From the sequence record PZ445468.1: a stretch of DNA of 47,623 nt, one strand, 5' to 3'. The position numbers and the translations under genes are program-made. This document shows, piece after piece, positions 21,362 to 47,115 of the stretch (the first letter of the stretch is position 1; each line of letters starts with the position of its first letter). The notes below the pieces were generated by a model. It did not search any database. It was given only the letters and a program-made list of their open reading frames with translations, and was not told the DNA's origin. The stretch is from a phage.

Positions 21362-21732
21362 ACATGCTTGAACTGGTTGATGCATATCTTCAGGATGCCG
21401 GATTATACGATGGTTGGACTTCGCAGTTGCAGTTCTGGAATGACACCGGAGATGGCAACGAGCAGTTTATTGTTCTGCAATCCAACGGTGGAACGCAGGT
21501 GATGGATGGCCTCGGCGGTGACTTCTATTTCTCGCTGTATGTTGTTGGCAAACATGGGCAGTACAATGTTGCGGATGTTGATGCGAAAGCCAGTGAGATT
21601 ATCGAATACATCAAGACACATCCGATTGATTCATGCGTTAACTACATCCAGTTGCAAGCGCCACTTGGCAGGCCAATGCTGACGGAGGAAAAACGACCTG
21701 TGCATGAGTTGCTTTTACGGGTTGTGAAATAA
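21358..21732 (+). CDS. putative tail completion / terminator protein
   Basis: position. Confidence 0.35.
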   Translation: MNMLELVDAYLQDAGLYDGWTSQLQFWNDTGDGNEQFIVLQSNGGTQVMDGLGGDFYFSLYVVGKHGQYNVADVDAKASEIIEYIKTHPIDSCVNYIQLQAPLGRPMLTEEKRPVHELLLRVVK

Positions 21733-21734
21733 AT

Positions 21735-21761
21735 AAAGCCGCACGAAGCGGCTTTTAATTT
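21735..21761 (+). terminator. rho-independent terminator
   Basis: AAAGCCGCACGAAGCGGCTTTTAATTT. Confidence 0.65.
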
Positions 21762-21836
21762 GGCACACCATGCAGGACTCGAACCTGCAACCAATAGCTT
21801 AGAAGGCTACTGCTCTGTCCGTTGAGCTAATGGTGT
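21761..21836 (-). tRNA. tRNA-Arg (anticodon TCT)
   Basis: 76-nt cloverleaf folded by hand: 7-bp acceptor stem ACACCAT/ATGGTGT, GTTCGAGTC T-loop, anticodon loop CTTCTAA, CCA end. Confidence 0.8.
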
Positions 21837-21842
21837 TTTATT

Positions 21843-21930
21843 TGGCGGATAGTACAGGATTCGAACCTGTGAACCGTTTCCGGTTTATCGGTTAGCAACC
21901 GACTGCTTTCGGCCTCTCAGCCAACTATCC
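21843..21930 (-). tRNA. tRNA-Ser (anticodon GCT), type II
   Basis: 88 nt: acceptor GGATAGT/ACTATCC, long variable arm, T-arm ACAGG-TTCGAAT-CCTGT, anticodon loop TTGCTAA, CCA end. Confidence 0.75.
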
Positions 21931-21970
21931 GTTTATTTAGTGCTGGTTTAAGCATTGCCAGCGTGCTTTC

Positions 21971-22034
21971 TTAATATCCAGCCCCGTAGCCCATACATAC
22001 CCATACATATGATTGCGATAATGCTGGATATTAA
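21971..22034. repeat. perfect 12-bp inverted repeat enclosing tandem CCCATACATA
   Basis: TTAATATCCAGC at 21971-21982 and GCTGGATATTAA at 22023-22034. Confidence 0.6.
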
Positions 22035-22791
22035 GTGTTGTGGCTCTGGTGCCTCCAGATTGCTGGTCGGTAAATCCAGCAGGCAATCACAAAACCGAAG
22101 TAGTGTTTCTTTACCTTGCCGCGTGCGCATAGCCGCATTACCACAACGGAAAGAGCACTGGTGGGACGCCTTCCTACATCATTGCGGTTCGGATTCCCCA
22201 CATAGCGCGTCACGGTCGTCGGCGAATTTTCCGTGGTCAATGCTCTTTCCTGTTGTGTGTTGTGGAGTGACGCACCATCTCACTATTAAATGTTAACCCA
22301 TTCCCAGCCCCACAACATGCGCTACGGTTAAGATTATTGCGTATATTGTATGGTCTTGCTGGTCACAACTGAAAGGGCACTTAACAGAAGATAGGTCTGA
22401 TTGCCTCGGATGATTTCTCAGTAGCCTAAATGCCCTTACATGTTGTGTGCCACGTTTCGTGTGGCTTACGGCAACGACATTACCGGATTATTCGATGCAC
22501 CTATGCGGGATTTACTAAGGCAACATGCCCGTTGTTACCCACTAAAGAGAGCACTATCTTCAAACAGACTTTGCGCGCAAGAACGACGATCAATCACAAT
22601 TCTCTCATTGGTAGGTGCCCATTATTAATCACACCGGGCCAGTGCGCCGAATTTGTTTACAAGGAATCGGAAGACCTTGCTGACTTACAGGCTATTACGC
22701 CGCCATCAGAACAACATCATCGTTTGCATTTATCTTTGTGGTCAGTTTCTAAAAAGTCCGCAAAGTCGCTCACGAAAACTATCTGAAATAC

Positions 22792-22835
22792 AATCTACAC
22801 CACAAAATAATCGCTGTCAACACCTGTGATATAAT
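22792..22835 (+). promoter_or_regulatory. extended -10 promoter TGTGATATAAT with upstream AATCTACACC
   Basis: TGnTATAAT 37 nt upstream of major tail ATG. Confidence 0.5.
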
Positions 22836-22871
22836 CACCACGTTAGCAGCTAACACAATTCGGAGATCGAA

Positions 22872-23588
22872 ATGGCTATTTATGCAAATGATAAGGGCGT
22901 TCTGGTTGGTCGTATGACCCGACTGTTCCTTGCTGAAGGGTGCGGTGACGCAGTTCCGGATGCAGAAGACTGGAAGTATTTAGGCTCAACCACCAGTAAA
23001 GGCGTTGACTACTCTCCGCAGACCACCACATCAGAAGCGGATACTACTGGCGGTTTTGTTTCCACTCTCGTTACCAGTTCTGATATGACCATCAGCGCAG
23101 AGGTGGAAATCCGCAAGAATGACCCGAGCGATGAGTTTGGCTTCCATCGTCTGGTTGAGATTTACGCCACTGAACTGAAGGCGCGTCGCCAGCCTTCCTT
23201 GTGGGTGCGTCAGGTGACTGGTGCAACTATCGTTACAGCGTACTGCAACATTACCAGCATCAGTTACGAAGGTGGCACGAACGACATCGTTACTGGCAGC
23301 CTTGAGTTCAAGGTTTACGATTCTGACAGTGTTACCGTCGAAAGCCTTGAAACTCTGGCATTCACTACCGACCTGCAATCAACAGGCAGCACTGGAAGCC
23401 CGTTAACTGTCGCTGTTGAAGGTGGCGTTGCTCCTTACACCTACGTGTGGCGCAAGGATGGCGTAGTTGTTGGTGGTGAGTCTGGCGCAACACTGGCAAG
23501 CCCAACCGCTGGTGTGTATACCGTTACGGTAACTGACTCGTCTACTGACCCGGAAATTATTATCAGCACGGCTTGCACCGTGTCCTGA
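22872..23588 (+). CDS. major tail protein
   Basis: 238-aa Thr/Ser/Val-rich ORF with Ig-like C-terminus, upstream of chaperone and tape measure. Confidence 0.7.
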   Translation: MAIYANDKGVLVGRMTRLFLAEGCGDAVPDAEDWKYLGSTTSKGVDYSPQTTTSEADTTGGFVSTLVTSSDMTISAEVEIRKNDPSDEFGFHRLVEIYATELKARRQPSLWVRQVTGATIVTAYCNITSISYEGGTNDIVTGSLEFKVYDSDSVTVESLETLAFTTDLQSTGSTGSPLTVAVEGGVAPYTYVWRKDGVVVGGESGATLASPTAGVYTVTVTDSSTDPEIIISTACTVS

Positions 23589-24848: not shown

Positions 24849-24897
24849 AATCTACATCACCGCCTGGCAGGTGTCAACACCACTGAGATGATATAAT
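24849..24897. promoter_or_regulatory. divergent promoters
   Basis: leftward TTGACA-17-TAGATT; rightward extended -10 TGATATAAT before tail chaperone. Confidence 0.55.
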
Positions 24898-43722: not shown

Positions 43723-43814
43723 CAGGCGCAAAACTCGAGCTTATCGCCAGTCTGGTTATCTTGGCATTCATCATTATCGCAGTGGCAGTTTCAAAATCAG
43801 GGTATGAGAGGTGA
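43719..43814 (+). CDS. small membrane protein (31 aa)
   Basis: short hydrophobic ORF, ATGA overlap. Confidence 0.25.
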   Translation: MTGAKLELIASLVILAFIIIAVAVSKSGYER

Positions 43815-43899
43815 AATGAGCAATTGGCATAACGAACATATCATGCAGTGGTATCGCCGTAGCATCAAGGCAATCATTAACTCTTATGAGGTTTAACAA

Positions 43900-44352: not shown

Positions 44353-44846
44353 GTGAAGTTAAGCGAATTGATATCGACCACAAAGGACTTCCATTCACTG
44401 ATAATAATGGGGTTTACGTTTTCTACGAAGACTATGCAGCACTAGAAGCTAAATGCGCTGCGCTGGTGGTGGAGAATGCGGTGCTGAATAAATTTATCGT
44501 ACAGAGTTGCTACGTGTTTGACGGCGAGCAGGGTGAACTATCTGATGCGTATATCTGCGCAATAGATGGAAGGATGCCGCAAACCACAGCCACCGACGCT
44601 TTCTTGGCTGAAGTGAAGACTGAAGCACGCAAGGAGGGAGCTTACTTTGTGGCGAACAGAATGCTGGCTGCCTGGGAAGCTGGTTTTATTGATGATACTG
44701 CAAAGAACGCCGCGGATATTGCCAGGATGATTCTTACCTCTACTGAGTTTATGGCTAATGCGCCGGAAGGCGATTTTGACCGCTCATTCTCTGATGGCGT
44801 TCTCGAAGATATCGCCGCCCAGCTTCGCAAAGGAGGCAACCAGTGA
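44349..44846 (+). CDS. hypothetical protein (165 aa)
   Basis: ORF. Confidence 0.45.
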   Translation: MSEVKRIDIDHKGLPFTDNNGVYVFYEDYAALEAKCAALVVENAVLNKFIVQSCYVFDGEQGELSDAYICAIDGRMPQTTATDAFLAEVKTEARKEGAYFVANRMLAAWEAGFIDDTAKNAADIARMILTSTEFMANAPEGDFDRSFSDGVLEDIAAQLRKGGNQ

Positions 44847-45451
44847 GCGAGATTAATTACCAGGCTCTGCGTGAAGCGGCGGAGAAGGCGACGAAAGGCC
44901 GGTGGGCTGTTGAGTTCGACGATGAGATTTACTCCACTGACGGCGTGAACCATGAGCAAATAGCCATGGTATTCAGTGAAAACGAAGCGCGTGATGCTGC
45001 ATTTATCGCCGCAGCCAACCCCGCCACCGTGCTGGCGCTGCTGGATGAGCTGGAGAAGACGCAGGCGCAATCGTCAAAGTGGTGCGAAGCCTTCCATAAA
45101 GCCGTATCGGTTGGTGCTCGCTATGAAGAGCGCATAGCAGAACTGGAGGGGGACGCATTCAATCCCGCAATTATTGATGTGGTAGCAGAACGCCAGCGGC
45201 AACAGTCGGTTGAAGGATGGACTCCTGAACATGACAACGCATATCAAAATAGCGAATTAGCAGATGCAGCGGCTTGTTACGCAATTCATGCGCACAACCA
45301 AGGTTTCTCCACTCCAGCACATTGGCCGTGGTCTCCTGACTGGTGGAAGCAATCAGGAGCACGCCGCGACTTAGTAAAAGCTGGCGCTCTTATTCTGGCA
45401 GAAATTGAACGTATTGACCGCGCCGCTGGCATTGGCGTGAAGGGGGAGTGA
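44843..45451 (+). CDS. Ead/Ea22-like protein
   Basis: N-terminal ALREAAEKAT ... NPATVLALLDELE pattern. Confidence 0.5.
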   Translation: MSEINYQALREAAEKATKGRWAVEFDDEIYSTDGVNHEQIAMVFSENEARDAAFIAAANPATVLALLDELEKTQAQSSKWCEAFHKAVSVGARYEERIAELEGDAFNPAIIDVVAERQRQQSVEGWTPEHDNAYQNSELADAAACYAIHAHNQGFSTPAHWPWSPDWWKQSGARRDLVKAGALILAEIERIDRAAGIGVKGE

Positions 45452-47016: not shown

Positions 47017-47115
47017 CTGATTTATAATAATCAATGCGGCTAGGGGGCACCCGAAAAGCGACTCATCACCGCCTGCCGCATTCACTTCAATGATGCCCTG
47101 ATGAGGAAGCTATAT

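Follow-up and report, generated by a model that had tools for sequence, protein, structure and literature searches.

A predicted phage tRNA operon preceded by a tmRNA-like leader RNA

Two tRNA genes lying within the structural module of a phage genome, together with a leader derived from tmRNA, probably form an operon that would limit ribosome stalling and alter the rescue of stalled ribosomes. The window analysed here (the whole stretch of 47,623 nt in record PZ445468.1) differs at 4 positions over its full length from Escherichia phage TanjaMuster_Bas81 (PQ850630.1, Bas81 from here on), and the queried stretch of 3.5 kb is 100% identical in both. The tRNAs are predicted to be the 3' end of a non-coding minus-strand unit of approximately 1.05 kb, running from a promoter at 22820-22792 to a terminator at 21755-21735. 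Comparison of homologs showed that the first ~170 nt of this predicted transcript form a conserved and structured RNA that descends from the mRNA-like portion of tmRNA. The tRNA genes themselves are ordinary and already known, and add nothing alone; the structured region upstream, which makes up the 5' part of the predicted unit, is more unusual than they are. Both tRNA genes were already annotated in PQ850630.1, which the first-pass annotation had missed, treating the structured region as background.

ARAGORN detected exactly two tRNA genes in the window, both on the minus strand: tRNA-Arg(UCU) at 21761-21836 (76 nt) and the class II tRNA-Ser(GCU) at 21843-21930 (88 nt). Infernal/Rfam recovered both (RF00005 scores of 69.6 bits, E = 3e-13, and 57.5 bits, E = 7e-10, respectively; gathering score 29). 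The first-pass annotation had proposed an Arg-TCT and a Ser-GCT gene at these coordinates, folding into canonical cloverleaves with encoded CCA. The predictions agree, no predictor called a pseudogene, and the stems read from the sequence are intact in both genes, with a fully paired 7-bp acceptor stem, a 7-nt anticodon loop with U33, a canonical T-loop and an encoded CCA. The genes had also been described as antisense to their neighbours and downstream of a structured, ORF-poor region. Both descriptions hold: the plus-strand genes end at 21732, the major tail gene starts at 22872, and the interval 21931-22790 is structured and non-protein-coding. At the sequence level, the tRNA-Arg D-loop AACGGACA provides A20, which is kept in all relatives, and with the anticodon U34 C35 U36 the identity elements of E. 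coli ArgRS (A20, C35 and U36 or G36) are present. The elements of E. coli SerRS (a long variable arm, G2-C71, C11-G24 and G73) are likewise present in tRNA-Ser, which also has G1-C72; its variable arm of 5 bp with a GAAA loop (AACCG-GAAA-CGGUU) is shorter than the arm of serV.

A host origin of the tRNAs is ruled out by their identity to the host genes (73% for tRNA-Arg vs. argU and 66% for tRNA-Ser vs. serV); the matches in E. coli genomes are prophage tRNAs, found in only 653 of 5426 genomes. tRNA-Arg is 87% identical to a lambdoid-prophage tRNA-Arg(UCU) that sits after an antiterminator Q gene. For tRNA-Ser, identity reaches 100% in phages of Klebsiella and Salmonella (e.g. IME207, KP591P3 and BUCT541), and phages that share it fully have an Arg tRNA that is only ~82% identical. 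The anticodon loop of tRNA-Arg (CUUCUAA) is that of the host argU, and the tRNA-Ser loop differs from that of serV at position 32 alone.

Codon usage was compared between the phage and 42 E. coli K-12 genes, with enrichments ranked among the 61 codons. AGA (134 codons in the phage) reached 9.1 vs. 1.2 per 1000 in the K-12 sample (7.3-fold, rank 2) and AGG 5.7 vs. 0.7 per 1000 (8.1-fold, rank 1). AGC was enriched 1.09-fold (rank 28) and AGU 1.7-fold (rank 14), neither being rare in the host sample (13.2 and 5.4 per 1000 respectively), and AGY codons showed a mild excess in the phage late genes (28.9 per 1000 vs. 19.9 in the other genes). The first-pass annotation had explained both tRNAs by codons rare in enterobacteria and had suggested comparing the late genes with the host. 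For AGA the explanation stands, this codon being host-rare and strongly enriched; for AGY it fails, as AGC and AGU are neither host-rare nor much enriched, and the late genes show the mild excess only. By this measure, tRNA-Arg fits a codon-compensating tRNA whereas tRNA-Ser(GCU) does not, and the presence of the latter is unexplained by codon usage. UCA and AUA are enriched 3.4-fold and 4.6-fold, yet the cognate tRNAs are absent from the phage. The genes for the major capsid, the decoration protein and the major tail protein, and the 471-codon gene upstream of the decoration protein, have 0-1 AGA codons. As these are the most highly expressed structural genes, tRNA-Arg would mainly serve early, replication and minor structural genes.

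A consensus scan placed a putative sigma-70-type promoter (TTGACA-17 nt-TAGATT, 10/12 matches) at 22792-22820 on the minus strand, with a predicted start near 22785. Both hexamers are invariant in an alignment of six phages, the divergent Klebsiella phage KP591P3 among them, and an analogous promoter lies directly before the same RNA in Felixounavirus/Mooglevirus homologs (TTGACA-17-TATAGT in skuden and TTGACA-17-TAAGAT in Sf14). A weaker promoter may lie nearer to the tRNAs. At the opposite end, an intrinsic terminator hairpin with an 8-bp stem was found by scanning at 21735-21755, followed by AUUUAUUU on the minus strand and by UUUUAAUUU on the plus strand; it is predicted to end transcription both of the plus-strand neck genes and of the tRNA operon that converges on them from the minus strand. 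A leader of ~850 nt before two tRNAs is unusual. It includes a conserved spacer directly before tRNA-Ser (21931-22140, minus strand) with a perfect 13-bp inverted repeat (21970-21982 and 22023-22035). Two plus-strand "hypothetical proteins" annotated within the unit, Bas81_0062 (21955-22296) and Bas81_0063 (22430-22786), are probably spurious: neither has a PHROG match, the conserved DNA is read in differing frames in Bas81, Bas80 and KFSST1, and relatives carry length-variable inserts. The annotators of ASO78B called no ORFs in this stretch.

The tmRNA-like RNA (22617-22785, minus strand) comprises a resume context, a 10-codon tag frame, a stop-codon hairpin and two covarying pseudoknots. The resume context AAAGAUAAAU and the tag frame occupy 22692-22737 on the minus strand (ORF 22692-22727), and the frame reads GCA AAC GAU GAU GUU GUU CUG AUG GCG GCG UAA UAG, that is, ANDDVVLMAA followed by two stops. 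The sub-threshold Rfam matches to tmRNA_permuted (the best, 20-34 bits vs. a threshold of 47) and beta_tmRNA (13-21 bits vs. 84), both below gathering, align exactly on this stretch. Frame length and stop position are kept in 25/25 homologous loci and in every further homolog fetched. The approximately 11 tag variants all follow the pattern AN[DE]xxx..A, replacements within the frame are conservative, and its flanks carry indels. Conventional translation of the frame was rejected, as AUG, GUG and UUG are absent between the upstream in-frame UAG and GCA; an alternative AUG frame was discarded because its length varies among homologs.

RNAalifold, applied to 12 diverse homologs, placed the tag stop codons in a hairpin at 22680-22709 (minus strand), the equivalent of tmRNA helix 5, the outer stem of which shows a two-sided change from CUGA/UCAG to CUGG/CCAG. 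Two H-type pseudoknots lie 3' of the tag on the same strand. In pseudoknot a (22647-22679; CAAGG-UCUUCCGAUU-CCUUG) the loop CCGA pairs with a downstream UCGG. Its stem varies among CAAGG, UGAGG, CGGGG and CAGGG with matching partners, and loop and tail covary (CCGA:UCGG, CCAG:CUGG, CCAA:UUGG, GUCG:CGAC and UCGA:UCGA). In pseudoknot b (22617-22646; CGCAC..GUGUG) the loop GCCC pairs with a downstream GGGC, with variants in stem 1 (CGCAU:AUGUG, CGUAC:GUAUG and CGCAG:CUGUG) and stem 2 (GCCCUGA:UCAGGGC, GCCCAC:GUGGGC, ACGGGAG:CUCCCGU and UCCUCG:CGGGGA). The features of a tmRNA mRNA-like domain were thus found together, namely a GCN resume codon after an A-rich AUA context, a short tag of the hydrophobic-Ala-Ala type and a stop in helix 5. 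The region upstream of the tag is antisense to the host PK1 and linker, and no PK1 equivalent was found there.

The leader has no tRNA-like domain: leaving the two tRNAs aside, no T-arm was found in 21931-22830, and ARAGORN reported no tmRNA. A canonical or permuted tmRNA gene was rejected on these grounds (ARAGORN -m empty, Rfam sub-threshold, T-arm absent). Among 134 loci, ARAGORN found no tmRNA other than the genuine E. coli ssrA, and no separate acceptor RNA for a two-piece tmRNA was found in the Bas81 genome. BLAST of the leader against E. coli ssrA gave only short, individually insignificant matches; the ssrA signal surfaced only on examining the reverse complement and the tag frame.

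The 5' domain of the leader (22740-22781, minus strand) is antisense to nt ~56-106 of the host tmRNA (ssrA). Its core UAGUUUUCGU (22781-22772) perfectly complements tag codons 3-6 of E. coli ssrA, with a perfect match of 10-11 nt. Further complementary blocks are GCGAC(U) vs. AGUCGC around the ssrA resume codon and UUUGCGG..UUUUUA vs. UAAAAAGCCGCAAA of ssrA. In most variants the 5' domain has 37-40 identities over ~55 columns with the reverse complement of ssrA 50-112. The predicted duplex energy was -41.7 kcal/mol, compared to a mean of -27.1 (sd 2.9) in 500 mononucleotide shuffles, one of which reached the observed value, and the predicted duplex always fell on ssrA within nt 56-106. The domain is predicted to pair better with host ssrA than with the phage's own tag region (-30.3 vs. 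-15.2 kcal/mol), and its conserved blocks are exactly those complementary to ssrA. The target 21-mer of ssrA is exact in at least 120 species. The conserved complementarity to the host tmRNA that characterises an antisense RNA is therefore present as predicted pairing, and anti-ssrA oligonucleotides act on the same ssrA region (PMC2373887). The leader may thus act in trans, as an antisense RNA to the host tmRNA.

Long hairpins on the minus strand separate the tmRNA-like RNA from the spacer. Unit 0 (22537-22617) is a putative degenerate long hairpin, specific to Bas81 among close relatives and an insertion relative to five of them; read by eye, its insert seems to resemble the allele AGATTGATCGTCGTTCCTGG.. 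of IMG/VR units. Unit 1 (22364-22449; 5' arm 22449-22429, 3' arm 22381-22364) is preceded by a small hairpin (22465-22449), and its arms depart from the family consensus by a compensatory change (AAGGGCA/UGCCCUU vs. AAGAGCA/UGCUCUU in the consensus). Unit 2 (22141-22259; 5' arm 22259-22239, 3' arm 22159-22141) has a minimum-free-energy fold with a closing stem of ~20 bp (-50.8 kcal/mol), and a 17-mer of its 3' arm recurs without mismatch in phage lambda and at least 120 contigs of IMG/VR. Units 1 and 2 fit a hairpin family with the arms CACAACAGGUAAGAGCA and UGCUCUUUCCGUUGUG (transcript sense strand) around a variable insert, which accompanies tRNAs in lambdoid late leaders. They share arms with a lambda late-leader hairpin (44787-44863, just after tR'), from which Bas81 differs in having 2-3 tandem units with different inserts. 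Compensatory changes affect 12/15 stem positions in 47 distinct arm pairs. The layout of inverted repeat plus insert had suggested an attC-like or retron-like element, an idea that was dropped. G:U pairs exceed A:C mismatches on the transcript strand and all neighbouring tRNAs are co-oriented, which points to an RNA; moreover, the ends of the arms do not appear to match the core-site consensus of attC.

Homologs of the tmRNA-like RNA were found in 728 phage records, usually beside tRNA genes, and in 656 of 5426 E. coli genomes. They occur in Felixounavirus, Kuttervirus, Jersey-like phages, P1-like phage-plasmids and lambdoid prophages, and all 44 of the 44 neighbouring tRNAs were on the strand of the RNA. 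In Felixounavirus/Mooglevirus it lies inside the tRNA cluster, directly before tRNA-Arg(UCU). The slot holds different tRNA cassettes across relatives (Ser+Arg, CAU only of the Met/Ile2 type, CAU+Arg and Ser+Arg+CAU), and NX263 has the tRNAs and lacks the tmRNA-like block, indicating that no single component is indispensable. The family appears to be unannotated in hundreds of well-studied genomes, and literature searches on the phage, its hairpin, the tags and tmRNA or anti-tmRNA of phages yielded no description of these elements.

In the proposed mechanism, host RNA polymerase would start at TTGACA-17-TAGATT (22820-22792) and stop at the terminator after tRNA-Arg (21755-21735). The long conserved hairpins of the leader would be cut, probably by RNase III, for which processing sites in the lambda late leader are described by Daniels et al. 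1988 (Virology 167:568), as cited in PMC7547250. The tRNAs would be freed by RNase P and 3' trimming, and would not need CCA addition, as CCA is encoded. tRNA-Arg(UCU) would supply the decoding of AGA, and weakly of AGG, codons used 7-8 times more than in E. coli, while tRNA-Ser(GCU) would have at most a modest supply role for the AGY-rich late genes. AGA and AGG elicit pausing and tmRNA tagging, according to PMC2998420 citing Roche and Sauer 1999. As these rare codons are a classic cause of both, the most economical reading takes the operon as one module, in which the tRNA would limit stalling on phage messages and the leader RNA would interfere with, or redirect, the fate of stalled ribosomes. 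That the leader redirects or blocks ribosome rescue is our inference.

A more specific version, which we put forward as a tentative possibility, is that the RNA at 22785-22617, which more than 700 enterobacterial phage genomes contain, is a phage "anti-tmRNA" that would anneal to the host tmRNA from the resume codon through the sixth tag codon, thereby hiding the tag template. Trans-translation might then simply be blocked. Alternatively, as antiparallel pairing would bring the phage linker, resume codon and tag frame out beside the host PK1 and tRNA-like domain, a two-piece tmRNA assembled in trans might add a phage tag (ANDDVVLMAA, ..LAVA or similar) instead of ANDENYALAA. Compared to ANDENYALAA, the phage tag is without the C-terminal LAA and without Tyr7. 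Together, the anti-tmRNA and tRNA-Arg(UCU) would spare phage proteins rich in AGA/AGG the tagging and degradation that stalling induces.

Three other explanations were weighed against this module. It is unlikely that the leader is inert or acts only in cis, that is, that a decaying captured tmRNA fragment with processing and termination hairpins shapes the stability of the tRNA precursor, the ssrA complementarity being a by-product of an ancestral inverted duplication. The absence of a tRNA-like domain, the sub-threshold Rfam scores, the single shuffle in 500 that attained the observed duplex energy and the retention of the tRNAs without the block in NX263 agree with such decay. However, a decaying fragment hardly fits a 10-codon frame and stop kept in every homolog, with conservative replacements and with indels in the flanks, nor repeated two-sided changes in four helices across unrelated phage families, nor its occurrence in 728 phage records. 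The conserved 5' blocks also coincide with the ssrA-complementary ones, which pair far better with ssrA than with the RNA's own tag region.

The tRNAs might instead be counter-defence spares, standing in for host tRNAs that anticodon nucleases or other defence systems aimed at tRNAs cut or deplete during infection, rather than serving codon supply. We consider this quite improbable, even though it would give a role to the tRNA-Ser(GCU) that codon usage leaves unexplained, and even though the stems of both tRNAs depart strongly from those of the host genes (66-73% identity), relatives exchange tRNA cassettes at the slot, tRNA-Ser is 100% identical across phages whose tRNA-Arg is only ~82% identical, and one phage gene is annotated as homologous to the T4 activator of PrrC, an anticodon nuclease. 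The anticodon loops, where the phage tRNAs match argU completely and serV save for position 32, argue the other way, because a nuclease that recognises the loop would probably not spare the phage copies. Furthermore, the enrichment of AGA/AGG is already a sufficient reason for tRNA-Arg, and no nuclease of an E. coli defence system is known to target tRNA-Arg(UCU) or tRNA-Ser(GCU) specifically.

That the leader belongs to a self-contained, non-canonical phage tmRNA with an adjacent tRNA-like acceptor (two-piece or rearranged), independent of the host tmRNA, is very unlikely: the best Rfam match is indeed the permuted model, a long hairpin precedes the block in lambdoid contexts with its 3' arm running into it as in permuted pre-tmRNAs, many hairpin inserts contain T-arm-like GGUUCGAnUCC motifs and, in Erwinia phage Calisson, Kuttervirus SFP10 and KP591P3, the block has tRNA-like elements with a T-arm in its vicinity, but the Bas81 leader has no T-arm outside its two tRNAs and the genome no tRNA-like or tmRNA gene elsewhere, ARAGORN recognised only E. 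coli ssrA in the 134 loci, all candidate acceptor stems examined lack the G3:U70 alanine identity pair and an encoded CCA, and the promoter leaves no space for a 5' acceptor strand in Bas81 and Felixounavirus.

The reading of the operon as one module of tRNAs and tmRNA-derived leader, if true, would join two observations that have been treated separately, the rare-codon tRNAs of phages and the dependence on, or sensitivity to, tmRNA of some phages, and it would offer a directly testable mechanism. Should the leader act on trans-translation in the host, no earlier natural RNA with tmRNA as its target would be known; it would also be the first tmRNA-derived gene recognised in enterobacterial phages, and it would provide a natural design for tmRNA inhibitors. 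In addition, structured RNAs can be concealed by "hypothetical protein" calls made beside the tRNA clusters of phages.

Phage tRNA-Arg(UCU) is a textbook case. In T4 and in lambdoid and Shiga-toxin phages (ileZ, argN and argO downstream of Q/pR'), the UCU anticodon likewise reads AGA, which is rare in the host and overused by the phage. Unlike those genes, the Bas81 tRNAs belong to a virulent Jersey-like siphovirus, run antisense within its structural module, have their own predicted sigma-70-type promoter, and pair tRNA-Arg with a tRNA-Ser(GCU) whose codons are not rare. The T4 tRNA cluster also yields two structured stable RNAs, species 1 and 2 (rnaC/rnaD), co-transcribed from the same precursor, and the predicted Bas81 operon resembles it in this arrangement; to our knowledge, neither a tag frame nor complementarity to tmRNA has been reported for them.

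With tmRNA (SsrA, including permuted forms) the phage RNA shares the AUAAAU|GCA resume context, the 10-codon AN[DE]xxx..A tag, stops in a hairpin and, on the 3' side of the tag, consecutive H-type pseudoknots. It lacks the acceptor stem, T-arm, G3:U70 and CCA, and so cannot be alanylated; only two pseudoknots follow its tag, where tmRNA has three, no PK1 is seen, and a 5' domain complementary to the tmRNA of the host is added. Other phages with tmRNA-derived genes are the mycobacteriophage Bxz1 and its relatives and Bacillus phage G, which carry tmRNAs, and DS6A, which carries a TLD-only RNA. Enterobacterial phages are absent from the phage tmRNA census, in which inhibition by SmpB titration was suggested for the DS6A-type molecule (PMC4131195). 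The Bas81 RNA is its mirror image, with the mRNA-like and pseudoknot part only and without the tRNA-like domain. Finally, synthetic anti-ssrA oligonucleotides, which complement the tag-coding region of ssrA, suppress tmRNA in E. coli extracts used for ribosome display and cell-free translation (PMC2373887, PMC3384345). The 5' end of the phage RNA complements the same stretch of ssrA, in a molecule that is natural, ~170 nt long, structured and endowed with a tag frame of its own.

Two intact tRNA genes on the minus strand of the Bas81 genome (Escherichia phage TanjaMuster_Bas81), tRNA-Arg(tct) at 21761-21836 and tRNA-Ser(gct) at 21843-21930, were called by ARAGORN, which found exactly two tRNA genes in the whole window. 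The Rfam tRNA model agreed, far beyond chance (69.6 bits, E 3e-13 and 57.5 bits, E 7e-10 respectively; gathering score 29). Sequence reading revealed an encoded CCA and a completely paired acceptor stem in both tRNAs, A20, C35 and U36 in tRNA-Arg, and a 5-bp variable arm with a GAAA cap, G73, G2-C71 and C11-G24 in tRNA-Ser. The antisense pair with encoded CCA described in the first-pass annotation is correct, ordinary and already known, as the GenBank record annotates both genes. It gains interest because the tRNAs belong to a predicted operon whose leader encodes a widespread, apparently undescribed tmRNA-derived RNA with a testable mechanism. The tRNAs are not copies of host genes (73% identity to E. 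coli K-12 argU and 66% to serV). The nearest E. coli genome matches of tRNA-Arg were prophage genes, present in only 653 of 5426 genomes, such as one paired with a tRNA-Asn gene, the two lying after an antiterminator Q gene (87% identity for tRNA-Arg).

The window is the complete PQ850630.1 genome (47,623 bp), rotated (record coordinate = window + 1048). Whole-length comparison showed four single-base differences (window/record: 23945 G/A, 33168 G/C, 33596 C/A and 33948 T/C), none within the tRNA operon. Elsewhere in the window, an int-alpA RNA (RF02996) match was present at 47033-47096 (+) (42.6 bits vs. a gathering score of 35.8) in this virulent phage, whose record annotates no integrase gene.

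The pair had been explained by the rarity of AGA and AGY codons in the host, a rationale that our codon figures uphold for Arg and contradict for Ser. The comparison set all 95 coding sequences annotated in the phage (14,720 codons) against a host sample of 42 genes from E. coli K-12 (14,748 codons). The phage strongly over-used AGA (9.1 vs. 1.2 per 1000, 7.3-fold, rank 2 of 61) and AGG (5.7 vs. 0.7, 8.1-fold, rank 1 of 61), which together made up 27% of its Arg codons vs. 3.5% in the host sample. Enrichment was 1.7-fold for AGU (9.3 vs. 5.4, rank 14 of 61) and 1.09-fold for AGC (14.5 vs. 13.2, rank 28 of 61); AGY reached 28.9 per 1000 in late genes vs. 19.9 in the remaining phage genes. AGA codons were concentrated in genes for replication, terminase and tail fibres and in small early genes; the major capsid gene, the decoration gene, the 471-codon gene preceding it and the major tail gene had 0-1 each.

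In relatives (Jersey-like siphoviruses of Escherichia, Shigella, Salmonella and Klebsiella) the tRNA slot is flanked by the final neck gene and the major tail gene, and its tRNA sets differ: Ser and Arg in ASO78B, Sf11 (the type of Cedarrivervirus), NX263 and ECO111 5-P; a single CAU tRNA in Bas80; CAU and Arg, with an HNH endonuclease gene, in KFSST1; and Ser, Arg and CAU in Klebsiella phage KP591P3. Several Klebsiella/Salmonella phages carry a tRNA-Ser 100% identical to that of Bas81 and a tRNA-Arg only ~82% identical, indicating that the slot evolves through cassette exchange. The slot equivalent to 21733-22871 was a cassette hotspot in the fetched relatives L003, L004, L005 and L010-L013. 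The CAU tRNAs, annotated variously as Met or Ile, may be of the AUA-reading Ile2 type, in keeping with the 4.6-fold enrichment of AUA codons.

Sequence scans predicted a sigma-70-type promoter (TTGACA-17-TAGATT, 22820-22792, -) and an intrinsic terminator directly 3' of tRNA-Arg (21755-21735), bracketing a non-coding stretch. Both promoter hexamers were unchanged in the alignment of six phages, the divergent KP591P3 among them. Two 'hypothetical proteins' are annotated here in GenBank, Bas81_0062 (21955-22296, +) and Bas81_0063 (22430-22786, +); neither had a PHROG match, and both overlap conserved RNA structures of the opposite strand. The conserved DNA beneath Bas81_0063 lies in another reading frame in the annotated ORFs of Bas80 and KFSST1, the inserts between promoter and tRNAs differ in length among relatives, and the ASO78B annotation calls no ORF there. 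These two ORFs are probably not genes. As no conserved protein was present between the bracketing sites, 22785-21735 was treated as a single putative minus-strand non-coding operon of ~1.05 kb, convergent with the neck genes and divergent from the major tail gene. A second promoter-like site with identical hexamers and spacing (24849-24877, -) lies upstream of a minus-strand cluster including a 'superinfection immunity protein' gene, so that the structural module appears to be broken twice by leftward units with matching promoters.

Sub-threshold Rfam matches to the permuted and beta-proteobacterial tmRNA models flagged 22790-22610, at the start of this operon, and aligned the tmRNA resume context and tag frame. 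In Bas81 these are AAAGAUAAAU and GCA AAC GAU GAU GUU GUU CUG AUG GCG GCG UAA UAG (ANDDVVLMAA and two stops). The tag frame kept ten codons and a stop throughout, both in the 25 distinct homologous loci and in the homologs fetched from other phage families (ANDDVVLMAA, ANEEMYLAVA, ANEEMYLAAA, ANEEVYLAVA, ANDDQFLAVA, ANDEQFLAVA, ANDDLMLAAA, ANDNVFLAVA, ANDNTFLAVA, ANDDLMMVAA and ANDNEMRAVA). Indels occurred in its flanks, and the alternative AUG frame showed no length conservation among homologs. A stop-codon hairpin, pseudoknot a and pseudoknot b follow 3' of the tag in that order. All helices had equivalent positions in ten sequence types, with repeated two-sided changes in pseudoknot a (loop:tail CCGA:UCGG, CCAG:CUGG, CCAA:UUGG, GUCG:CGAC and UCGA:UCGA) and in stem 2 of pseudoknot b (GCCC:GGGC, GCCCUGA:UCAGGGC, GCCCAC:GUGGGC, ACGGGAG:CUCCCGU and UCCUCG:CGGGGA). 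Sequence comparison shows that 22785-22617 (-), which is unannotated, encodes a genuine structured RNA that is conserved and akin to the mRNA-like half of tmRNA. Its identity as a tmRNA was rejected, as acceptor stem, T-arm and CCA are absent and the only tmRNA that ARAGORN called across the window and 134 fetched loci was genuine E. coli ssrA (the host tmRNA gene). The leader RNA, which lacks a tRNA-like domain, might be an inert remnant; given the constant tag length and the two-sided helix changes, we consider this unlikely.

The 5' end of this RNA is complementary to host tmRNA. Tag codons 3-6 of E. coli ssrA (nt 96/97-106) are perfectly complementary to its invariant motif (U)AGUUUUCGU(C), and the phage tag diverges exactly at the codons that this motif would bind. 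The 5' domain is antisense to ssrA nt ~56-106, with further conserved blocks GCGAC(U), complementary to AGUCGC around the resume codon, and UUUGCGG..UUUUUA, complementary to ssrA UAAAAAGCCGCAAA, which corresponds to PK1 (3' side) and the A-rich linker. Most variants shared 37-40 identical positions over ~55 columns with the reverse complement of ssrA 50-112. The predicted duplex between the 42-nt Bas81 domain and ssrA (-41.7 kcal/mol) was matched by 1 of 500 mononucleotide shuffles (mean -27.1, sd 2.9), and the first 30 nt were predicted to pair far better with host ssrA than with the phage's own tag region (-30.3 vs. -15.2). A 21-nt ssrA target was identical in at least 120 Gamma-/Betaproteobacteria species, which would explain the invariance of the phage motif.

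The leader also harbours two clear long hairpins, unit 1 (22449-22364, -) and unit 2 (22259-22141, -), and a third in degenerate form. Conserved arms (CACAACAGGUAAGAGCA and UGCUCUUUCCGUUGUG) enclose 50-110 nt that vary among phages as a limited set of alleles reused across unrelated contexts, many with T-arm-like GGUUCGAnUCC motifs. The exact 17-mer of the 3' arm was present in at least 120 IMG/VR contigs. Compensatory two-sided changes affected 12 of 15 stem positions (47 distinct arm pairs), and real arms paired at 13.6 of 15 positions vs. 12.6 with shuffled partners (best of 1000 shuffles, 12.9). G:U pairs outnumbered A:C mismatches, their counterpart for a structure on the opposite strand, about two to one, and all tRNAs within 1.5 kb of a hairpin unit shared its strand. 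Together, these results indicate a hairpin that forms in RNA, on the strand of the tRNAs.

Homologs of 22600-22790 were carried by 728 phage records (among them Jersey-like siphoviruses, Klebsiella siphoviruses, Ackermannviridae, Felixounavirus, Mooglevirus, N4-like Gamaleyavirus, Erwinia Loessnervirus and the P1-like phage SJ46) and by 656 of 5426 E. coli genomes, mainly on plasmids of ~85-140 kb; nearly all lack annotation. In Felixounavirus/Mooglevirus the block, with its own predicted TTGACA-17-TATAGT-type promoter, lies inside the tRNA cluster, ~35 nt upstream of tRNA-Arg(UCU). Among the 25 loci having antisense motif and resume context, 16 had tRNAs within 1.5 kb, all co-oriented with the RNA (44/44). 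In an IMG/VR prophage contig, an antitoxin-type SIB RNA (RF00113, 98.6 bits; L029 1709-1862, -) lies a few hundred bases from the block.

A joint function of tRNA and tmRNA-like RNA is attractive, since the rare codons AGA and AGG are known to make ribosomes pause and to trigger tmRNA tagging (PMC2998420, citing Roche and Sauer 1999). The tRNA would lower stalling, and the tmRNA-like RNA would mask or re-template the host tag; co-transcription, processing by RNases III and P and any effect on trans-translation are inferred from sequence. Bas81_0091 (43804-43896, +; record 44852-44944), a 30-codon ORF, carries the annotation 'activator of host PrrC lysyl-tRNA endonuclease' (Stp-like) and bears on tRNA-centred conflict between phage and host; Bas81 encodes no tRNA-Lys. 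That the tRNAs serve counter-defence seems to us quite improbable, the AGA/AGG enrichment already accounting for tRNA-Arg. Unannotated tRNA-like elements with acceptor stem and T-arm, without encoded CCA or G3:U70, adjoin the tmRNA-like RNA in Escherichia phage ECBP1 (L140 720-791, the only one called by ARAGORN, as tRNA-Ala(cgc)), Erwinia phage Calisson (L141 ~770-835) and Salmonella phage SFP10 (L137 ~700-770 and ~1150-1300). A self-contained non-canonical phage tmRNA using such a neighbouring element is very doubtful, the only T-arms in the predicted Bas81 transcript being those of its two tRNAs.

We found no literature description of this tmRNA-like RNA; a 2014 census of phage ssrA genes listed only mycobacteriophages, Bacillus phage G and DS6A (TLD only) (PMC4131195). 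In lambdoid prophages the tmRNA-like block lies within the late leader, between hairpin units. Phage lambda itself (NC_001416) has the 3'-arm 17-mer in a hairpin at 44787-44863 (L134 988-1063), of the same family as Bas81 units 1 and 2 and directly after the tR' terminator of 6S RNA. A 1988 paper cited in PMC7547250 reports, by its title, processing sites for RNase III in the late leader of lambda; possible RNase III cleavage of this hairpin family is a lead. The E. coli tmRNA tag is ANDENYALAA, and the Bas81 RNA frame reads ANDDVVLMAA.
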